A stretch of DNA of 38,307 bases from the IMG/VR virus record IMGVR_UViG_2657245439_000017. One strand, written 5' to 3'. The position numbers and the translations under genes were made by a program. Position 1 is the first letter of the stretch. Each line of letters begins with the position of its first letter. This DNA is from a virus (taxonomy: Duplodnaviria; Heunggongvirae; Uroviricota; Caudoviricetes). The notes below the pieces were generated by a model, which was not told the DNA's origin, made no database searches, and worked only from the letters and a program-made list of their open reading frames with translations. This document shows positions 36,316 to 38,307 of this stretch, one piece after another.

Positions 36316-38307
36316 ATGAAGCTAACCGATGCGGATAATGCCGCCGATGGCATTTTTTTCCCCGCCCTTGAGCAAAATATGATGGGCGCGGTGTTAATTA
36401 ACGAAAATGATGAAGTGATGTTTTTCAACCCCGCCGCAGAGAAGCTCTGGGGGTACAAACGTGAAGAAGTCATTGGCAATAACATTGATATGCTGATTCC
36501 GCGGGATTTGCGTTCTGCGCATCCTCAATACATTCGTCACAACCGTGAAGGTGGTAAAGCACGCGTCGAGGGGATGAGTCGGGAGCTGCAGCTGGAGAAA
36601 AAAGACGGCAGTAAAATCTGGACCCGTTTTGCGCTATCGAAAGTGAGCGCCGAGGGGAAAGTTTATTACCTGGCGCTGGTACGGGATGCCAGCGTAGAAA
36701 TGGCGCAAAAAGAACAGACCCGACAATTGATTATTGCCGTTGACCATCTCGACCGACCGGTGATTGTCCTCGATCCGGAACGCCATATTGTGCAGTGCAA
36801 TCGCGCATTTACCGAAATGTTTGGTTACTGCATTAACGAAGCCAGCGGTATGCAGCCCGATACACTCCTGAACATTCCAGAATTCCCTGCTGATAACCGT
36901 ATTCGTTTACAGCAGTTGCTATGGAAAACCGCCCGCGATCAGGACGAATTTCTGCTGTTGACGCGCACCGGTGAAAAAATCTGGATTAAAGCCTCTATCA
37001 GCCCGGTTTATGACGTGCTCGCGCATCTGCAGAACCTGGTAATGACATTCTCGGATATCACCGAAGAAAGGCAAATCCGCCAGCTTGAAGGCAATATTCT
37101 CGCCGCCATGTGCAGCAGCCCCCCATTTCATGAAATGGGGGAAATCATTTGTCGTAACATCGAATGTGTTCTCAACGAATCGCATGTTTCGCTGTTCGCG
37201 CTGCGCAACGGGATGCCGATACACTGGGCGTCATCTTCGCACGGTGCAGAAGTTCAAAATGCGCAAAGCTGGTCAGCGACCATTCGTCAGCGCGATGGCG
37301 CGCCTGCGGGGATCCTGCAAATTAAAACCTCGTCAGGAGCAGAAACCAGCGCCTTTATCGAACGCGTGGCAGATATCAGCCAGCATATGGCCGCGCTGGC
37401 GCTGGAACAGGAAAAAAGCCGTCAGCATATTGAACAACTCATCCAATTTGATCCGATGACCGGTCTGCCAAATCGCAATAACCTGCACAATTACCTCGAT
37501 GACCTGGTCGACAAATCCGTCTCTCCGGTGGTGTATCTCATCGGTGTTGACCATATTCAGGATGTGATTGATAGCCTTGGCTATGCGTGGGCCGATCAGG
37601 CATTGCTGGAAGTGGTCAATCGCTTTCGTGAAAAACTCAAACCGGATCAGTATCTCTGTCGTATTGAAGGTGCGTCTTTTGTCCTCGTGAGCCTGGAAAA
37701 CGATGTCAGTAACATTACCCAGATCGCCGATGAGCTACGGAATGTGGTCAGCAAGCCGATAATGATTGACGATAAACCATTCCCGCTCACCTTGAGCATT
37801 GGCATCAGCTACGACGAGGGTAAAAACCGCGATTACCTGCTCTCCACTGCTCACAATGCAATGGATTTTATTCGCAAAAATGGCGGTAACGGCTGGCAGT
37901 TCTTCAGCCCGGCGATGAACGAAATGGTAAAAGAGCGTTTGGTTTTAGGCGCAGCGCTAAAAGAAGCGATTAGCAATAACCAACTTAAACTGGTTTATCA
38001 GCCGCAAATCTTCGCAGAAACGGGTGAACTGTACGGCATCGAAGCCCTTGCTCGCTGGTACGATCCCCTGCATGGTCATGTGCCCCCTTCACGGTTTATT
38101 CCTCTCGCAGAAGAGATTGGTGAAATCGAAAATATTGGGCGCTGGGTCATCGCGGAAGCTTGCCGTCAGTTAGCAGAATGGCGTAGCCAGAATATTCATA
38201 TCCCGCGTTATCCGTTAACTTGTCTGCGCTGCACTTTCGCAGTAATCAGCTGCCTAATCAGGTATCTGATGCAATGCACGCCTGGGGTATTGACGGCCAC
38301 CAGCTGA
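36316..38307 (+). pseudogene. dosP: dosP-like heme-PAS c-di-GMP phosphodiesterase gene, frame broken inside EAL domain near 38200 (or sequence error); continues beyond window
   Basis: N-terminus MKLTDADNAADGIFFPALEQ ... matches DosP as recalled; after RSQNIH the in-frame reading is Cys-rich nonsense, while the -1-offset frame from 38202 reads PALSVNLSALHFRSNQLPNQVSDAMHAWGIDGHQL (conserved EAL SVNLS block). Confidence 0.6.

Follow-up and report, generated by a model that had tools for sequence, protein, structure and literature searches.

The dosP (pdeO) gene at the right-hand end of the window carries a single-base deletion, delG1890, which is very probably a genuine, recent, clone-specific loss-of-function allele. 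By the window we mean the whole stretch of DNA that was analysed, the 38,307 nucleotides of IMG/VR virus record IMGVR_UViG_2657245439_000017. By sequence and by synteny the gene is the orthologue of E. coli DosP/PdeO (EcDOS, YddU; K-12 b1489), with which it shares the domain order heme-PAS, PAS, GGDEF and EAL. Once the deletion is repaired, 13 of the 799 residues differ from those of K-12 DosP. Structures of E. coli DosP are available for the full-length protein (PDB 9cdr and 9bgv) and for the EAL domain (4hu3). The locus order is gadC-digH-dosC-dosP, followed in the non-K-12 strains examined by osmC-bdm-sra-maeA. Both in assembly GCA_001266385.1 (L002) and in prophage-free relatives, digH lies upstream of dosP, and osmC, bdm, sra and maeA lie downstream, so the gene occupies the orthologous position. 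The window differs from K-12 in that the dosP frame breaks after Pro630 and the partner gene, dosC, is present only as a remnant.

The break in the dosP reading frame

dosP starts at 36316 on the plus strand, with an alternative upstream ATG at 36292. Residues are counted here from MKLTD; the historical count, from MRQDAEVI, is eight higher and is the one given by the ATG at 36292. The open reading frame from 36292 or 36316 to 38307 matches native DosP up to codon 630 (…NIHIP) and then continues through 33 out-of-frame codons, its translation ending in …AEWRSQNIHIPRYPLTCLRCTFAVISCLIRYLMQCTPGVLTATS before a TGA at 38305–38307. The shifted frame from 38202 encodes PALSVNLSALHFRSNQLPNQVSDAMHAWGIDGHQL, which is the true DosP continuation PALSVNLS…, and is closed upstream by a TAG at 38184–38186. 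Translation is in agreement with the preliminary description of this DNA, which had read the frame as dosP as far as …AEWRSQNIH and then as a Cys-rich tail with a stop at the edge, and had assigned the SVNLS block to the frame from 38202, with a stop at 38184. The features of this region are:

36316–38205, plus strand: dosP (pdeO) codons 1–630 in the native frame, comprising the heme-PAS, PAS and degenerate GGDEF domains and the first 84 EAL residues (Pfam, PDB, 99.8% identity to E2348/69 dosP)
38205–38206, plus strand: site of the 1-base deletion (alignment gap; same gap in L002, L003, L004 and L013)
38206–38307, plus strand: out-of-frame tail of 33 codons, RYPLTCLRCTFAVISCLIRYLMQCTPGVLTATS, and its TGA at 38305–38307 (translation)
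38202–38306, plus strand: native dosP frame after the deletion, PALSVNLSALHFRSNQLPNQVSDAMHAWGIDGHQL…, which runs past the window edge (translation)

Alignment to reference dosP, a check that the preliminary description had proposed, returns exactly one missing G. There is a single gap against the intact dosP of both SK1144 (L001) and EPEC E2348/69 (L005), where the references read ATCCCGGCGTTATCC and the window ATCCCGCGTTATCC. One G of a GG pair has been lost at 38205/38206 (reference ATCCCGGCG, window ATCCCGCG), which corresponds to dosP nt 1890/1891, where codon 630 meets codon 631. The single-base indel predicted from the sequence is thus borne out, whereas its predicted place, 38190–38201, lies a few bases too far to the left. 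A compensating second indel was considered and is ruled out by the single gap across 2,400 nt.

The truncated product is 663 aa long. In L002, the native frame extends 408 nt past the edge of the window and ends at the usual dosP stop after …PLKI. The stop codon coincides with the edge of the window because the window happened to be cut there. When one G was put back in silico into the L002 sequence, a clean 799-aa open reading frame resulted, with no further stop or indel.

Distribution and age of the deletion

The deletion is rare, and complete genomes lack it. The 308-base query stretch was found in 5,336 of 5,426 complete E. coli genomes, and each of the best 30 of these 5,336 matches spans 309 bases, so that the extra G is present. 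A megablast search with a 50-mer centred on the deletion, which seeds only where the deletion itself exists, matched none of the 5,426. A search of genome_contigs for an exact 30-mer of the allele likewise gave no match; as that collection has one genome per species, an absence from it says little.

The allele does occur in other public data. The exact 663-aa product is also encoded in NCBI assembly GCA_001266385.1 and in the Logan data of ERR14002607 and ERR180832. The first of these (L002, contig JHTH01000005.1) is 100% identical to window positions 26316–38307 and very probably represents the DNA from which the window was taken. The contig of ERR14002607 (L003) is common to nine samples, with two similar places besides, and shows no other difference from L002 over 9.5 kb; the third carrier is the contig of ERR180832 (L004). 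A further assembly, GCA_902505505.1 (L013), has the same delG1890 together with one extra synonymous SNP, its only difference in 8.4 kb. Hence delG1890 is present in at least four public assemblies. Three of them (L003, L004 and L013) are prophage-free, with digH directly upstream of the dosC remnant, and must therefore come from strains other than that of the window. The independence of the carrier assemblies is judged from their accession series, the presence or absence of the prophage and the one SNP. The closest complete genome at the locus is E2348/69, yet it differs by 22 SNPs in 8.5 kb and so is not the same clone.

These data bear directly on whether the base is missing at all. The preliminary description had offered sequencing error as an alternative, in which the genome truly reads GG, dosP is intact and a base was dropped by the sequencer or assembler. 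Such an origin would suit a base missing from a 2-base homopolymer, and the window matches a draft assembly (JHTH01000005.1). It would have to account, however, for an identical deletion in at least four assemblies of different accession series, with the L003 contig alone found in nine samples, and for three carriers that are prophage-free strains. Moreover, the deletion is confined to one dosP haplotype, defined by P67S and A401S, and is absent from more than 5,300 complete genomes with the same local context. A deletion that occurs on one haplotype only and is inherited with it follows the pattern of a real mutation rather than that of a context-driven sequencing error. Error is therefore very improbable, and agreement between assemblies, on which the case against it rests, would appear effectively to exclude it.

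The two substitutions that mark the haplotype are:

36514, plus strand: dosP nt 199, P67S (historical P75S), two residues N-terminal to His, the proximal heme ligand; derived, in this clone only
37516, plus strand: dosP nt 1201, A401S, in the GGDEF domain; derived, in this clone only

Together with two synonymous changes, P67S and A401S are the only differences between the repaired open reading frame and that of E2348/69. The changes derived in the clone are P67S, A401S and possibly one of the synonymous ones. They are compatible with relaxed constraint, in numbers too small for a test. The gene carries no lesion besides delG1890, so its inactivation is recent. Over longer distances dosP shows 13 amino-acid per 61 nucleotide differences from K-12, and 3 amino-acid per 11 nucleotide differences between two dosC-less strains. 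By these comparisons dosP appears to evolve under purifying selection, also after dosC loss.

The truncated protein

The truncated product retains every domain upstream of the catalytic one. Pfam identifies PAS/PAS_9 (residues 25–124), PAS_4 (142–253), GGDEF (378–525) and EAL (547–626). The heme-PAS domain finds its counterparts in PDB entries 1v9y (E 7e-86) and 1s66 (E 2e-73). Its ligands His69, Met87 and Arg89 (historical His77, Met95 and Arg97) are all retained in a segment that reads …RSAH69PQYIRHNREGGKARVEGM87SR89…. Sensor and EAL domain are separated by the second PAS domain and the GGDEF domain, the latter of which is regarded as degenerate in DosP.

The catalytic domain is cut short, as the preliminary description had held. 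Its profile match spans positions 3–236 when the gene is intact (residues 547–781) and only positions 3–81 of 236 when it is truncated. This amounts to a loss of 64% of the EAL domain (151 of 235 residues) and of 169 C-terminal residues in all. The full-length DosP structures 9cdr and 9bgv match query residues 1–634 only, and the out-of-frame tail has no match to DosP structures past residue 634. EAL domains adopt a TIM-barrel fold. Of the residues at the active site, Glu576 of the EAL motif and Arg580 (historical E584 and R588) are retained, whereas N635 (SVNLS), the EITES glutamates 667 and 670, D697 and D698 (DDFGTG), K718 (KIDKS; historical K726) and Q774 are encoded only in the shifted frame or past the stop and are not made. 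A complete EAL domain with its metal- and substrate-binding residues (E, R, N, E, D, D, K, E, Q) is thus lacking. In DosP, E584 and K726 belong to the two-metal catalytic site, according to PMC11543664, which describes the DosP structure.

Given the established EAL mechanism, loss of these catalytic residues would make c-di-GMP hydrolysis impossible. Phosphodiesterase activity would almost certainly be gone, and O2-stimulated hydrolysis of c-di-GMP to pGpG is predicted to be absent. A 146-aa open reading frame called downstream in L002 corresponds to the C-terminal part of the EAL domain (profile positions 114–236), from which the domain could not be reassembled. With a partial TIM barrel followed by 33 nonsense residues at its end, the truncated protein is likely to be unstable.

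The two fragments fall into odd protein clusters. The representative of the 90%-identity cluster of the 663-aa fragment is the malic enzyme MaeA, as are most of its members, and the 146-aa EAL fragment is grouped with DosC fragments. Both placements look like artefacts of the clustering and not biology.

Loss of dosC, the prophage and other dosP lesions

An intact dosC, which encodes a globin-coupled diguanylate cyclase of 460 aa and in the dosCP operon is co-transcribed with dosP, is missing from its place directly upstream of dosP. What is left is:

36081–36291, plus strand: dosC remnant, a 47-nt internal piece (36081–36127) and the last 165 nt of the gene (36127–36291), with its TAG at 36289–36291 (E2348/69 versus K-12 alignment)

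This remnant represents 211 nt of a gene that is 1,383 nt long in K-12, and two dosC blocks are missing relative to K-12 from E2348/69 and the window alike. A 50-mer across the deletion junction matches 1,045 of 5,426 complete genomes, ATCC 25922/Seattle 1946 among them. The dosC-deleted genomes ATCC 25922, E2348/69 and SK1144, which are usually assigned to phylogroup B2, have exactly the same remnant as the window; dosP is normally intact there, whereas it is frameshifted in the window. RefSeq annotates the remnant as an incomplete pseudogene beside intact dosP in both SK1144 and E2348/69. In SK1144 the remnant has an additional 1-base deletion, so it decays further in some lineages. The double deletion in dosC is a separate and much older event than the dosP frameshift. 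The preliminary view of the whole dosCP module as decaying is therefore right in that both genes are dead here, but it joins two unrelated events of very different ages. Between them dosP was long conserved, and this conservation after dosC loss indicates a DosC-independent function of DosP in most dosC-less strains.

The prophage did not disrupt dosC, because it is inserted in the digH–dosC intergenic region; the same remnant in prophage-free genomes rules it out as the cause of dosC loss. The insertion lies 85 nt past the digH stop and 482 nt upstream of the dosP start. Nearly the whole window (1–35834) is this Mu-type transposable prophage, the left end of which lies outside the window. Its features are:

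823 to about 25830, minus strand: late and tail genes
28885–30654, plus strand: rve transposase
30638–31831, plus strand: MuB-like AAA protein
32131–32661, plus strand: Gam
34821–35312, plus strand: GemA
35284–35673, plus strand: Mor
35833–35834: right end of the prophage, …GTCTAATCA followed by AATACG… (homology to prophage-free L003, L005 and L001 begins at 35834)

Unlike Mu, in which the modules run one way, the prophage has early and late modules that point away from each other on either side of a central repressor region. Among deposited phages, PhiKM (PQ738613.1) is the closest, with 98.7% identity over 82% of window positions 1–25000. Matches to related prophages in other genomes end at 35834–35838, next to unrelated host genes, and the 2.8 kb at the right end is shared by 614 of 5,426 complete E. 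coli genomes, in which it stands beside different host genes, as is expected of random transposition. Near its left-hand limit the window contains facing tail-fibre genes:

72–428, plus strand: tail-fibre tip fragment
432–851, plus strand: tail-fibre assembly gene
823–1416, minus strand: tail-fibre assembly gene
1416–2870, minus strand: tail-fibre gene

Together (72–2870) these resemble a host-range segment capable of inversion. A related prophage (L020) has a resolvase-type invertase immediately to the left of the position that matches the window start. At the other end, a sigma-70-like promoter match is found at 35858–35886, between the prophage end and the dosC remnant; such matches are no more numerous than in shuffled sequence. 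dosP's own upstream signals may remain at this site.

Comparable decay of the module has been described. PMC5635171 reports that natural isolates frequently lack DosC and that in the urinary tract infection isolate B-11870 dosC is missing and dosP contains a stop codon (Cimdins et al. 2017). As described there, B-11870 has reached the same end state, which is read as lost O2-responsive c-di-GMP control, in another strain and by another lesion, a stop codon as opposed to the 1-base deletion at nt 1890 in the window. Public assemblies (L007–L016) contain further dosP lesions: delA1644 (in at least three runs), delC1872, premature stops at codons 622, 625 and 632, one deletion of 76 bp and others of greater length. 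In one of these assemblies (L011) the dosP lesion stands beside an intact dosC. Another (L008), in which several genes nearby are broken, may be an error-prone assembly, and the delC1872 allele likewise occurs in an assembly with other broken genes. These are independent inactivations that affect the same part of the gene by mutations, and in strains, different from those of delG1890. They were found through an identical 146-aa downstream EAL open reading frame, and the list is thus biased by ascertainment, though it does show that dosP is inactivated repeatedly. The lesions lie clustered between codons 548 and 664, which is not taken as a hotspot, since the look-up finds only lesions that leave this same frame. 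The main survey of GGDEF and EAL gene variation in E. coli is said to be that of Povolotsky and Hengge from 2016. The gene, the module and the kind of decay are already known, and the window allele is an ordinary lineage-specific pseudogene.

Two further readings would have the frameshifted gene still serve the cell. Some full-length DosP would be made if the ribosome slipped by −1 on C-CCG, the tRNA-Pro re-pairing from CCG to the overlapping CCC before GCG is read. Indeed, a −1 shift at 38202–38205 would restore exactly …IPALSVNLS… with no amino-acid change. Yet there is no X XXY YYZ slippery heptamer at 38198–38206, the downstream 85 nt fold no better than shuffled sequences (z = −0.80) and transcriptional slippage would need a longer run than the three bases of CCC. 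The flanks are those of a plain wild-type gene, with no reason to contain frameshift stimulators, and relatives have the frame uninterrupted. With the heptamer, downstream structure and conservation among relatives all wanting, we reject a programmed frameshift. Recoding is hardly credible, and read-through by this route would be at background level. A non-neutral role of the truncation itself is unlikely in either of its forms, selection for loss of the orphan phosphodiesterase, with c-di-GMP and biofilm raised aerobically, or retention of the dead heme-PAS/PAS/GGDEF fragment as an O2 or heme binder or scaffold. The intact N-terminal 630 residues, the persistence of the allele in several isolates and the independent recurrence of dosP lesions are what such a role would lead one to expect, and the promoter-like site at 35858–35886 between the prophage end and dosP points weakly the same way. 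[quoted passage not shown] The clone is narrow, however, and the recurrence was seen only through lesions that leave the 146-aa downstream frame. Relaxed constraint accounts for the two derived amino-acid replacements no worse than a new function would, and a fragment with a partial barrel and nonsense tail is likely to be unstable. Were the non-neutral reading true, the recurrent dosP truncations of other strains would be convergent adaptation.

A loss-of-function allele in a narrow clone can be placed in a simple order of events. Two deletions would first have removed dosC in a common ancestor of this strain and about one fifth of E. coli, after which dosP remained as an orphan gene, intact and kept by selection. 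delG1890 would then have arisen in one narrow clone, the G being lost from its GG pair most simply through replication slippage or a repair error. The deletion shifts the frame after Pro630, adds 33 nonsense residues and ends translation at codon 664. Later, a Mu-type phage would have transposed into the digH–dosC intergenic region in the strain of the window. Transposable phages do not excise precisely, so the prophage-free carriers of delG1890 would represent the earlier state.

The strain thus has neither half of the DosC/DosP oxygen-to-c-di-GMP module. The import of this hardly extends beyond annotation of the strain, in which both halves should be recorded as missing. delG1890 itself is specific to a narrow clone and could be used as a lineage marker. 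Finally, oxygen-dependent control of curli, PNAG or PNPase through DosC/DosP would be expected to be absent.
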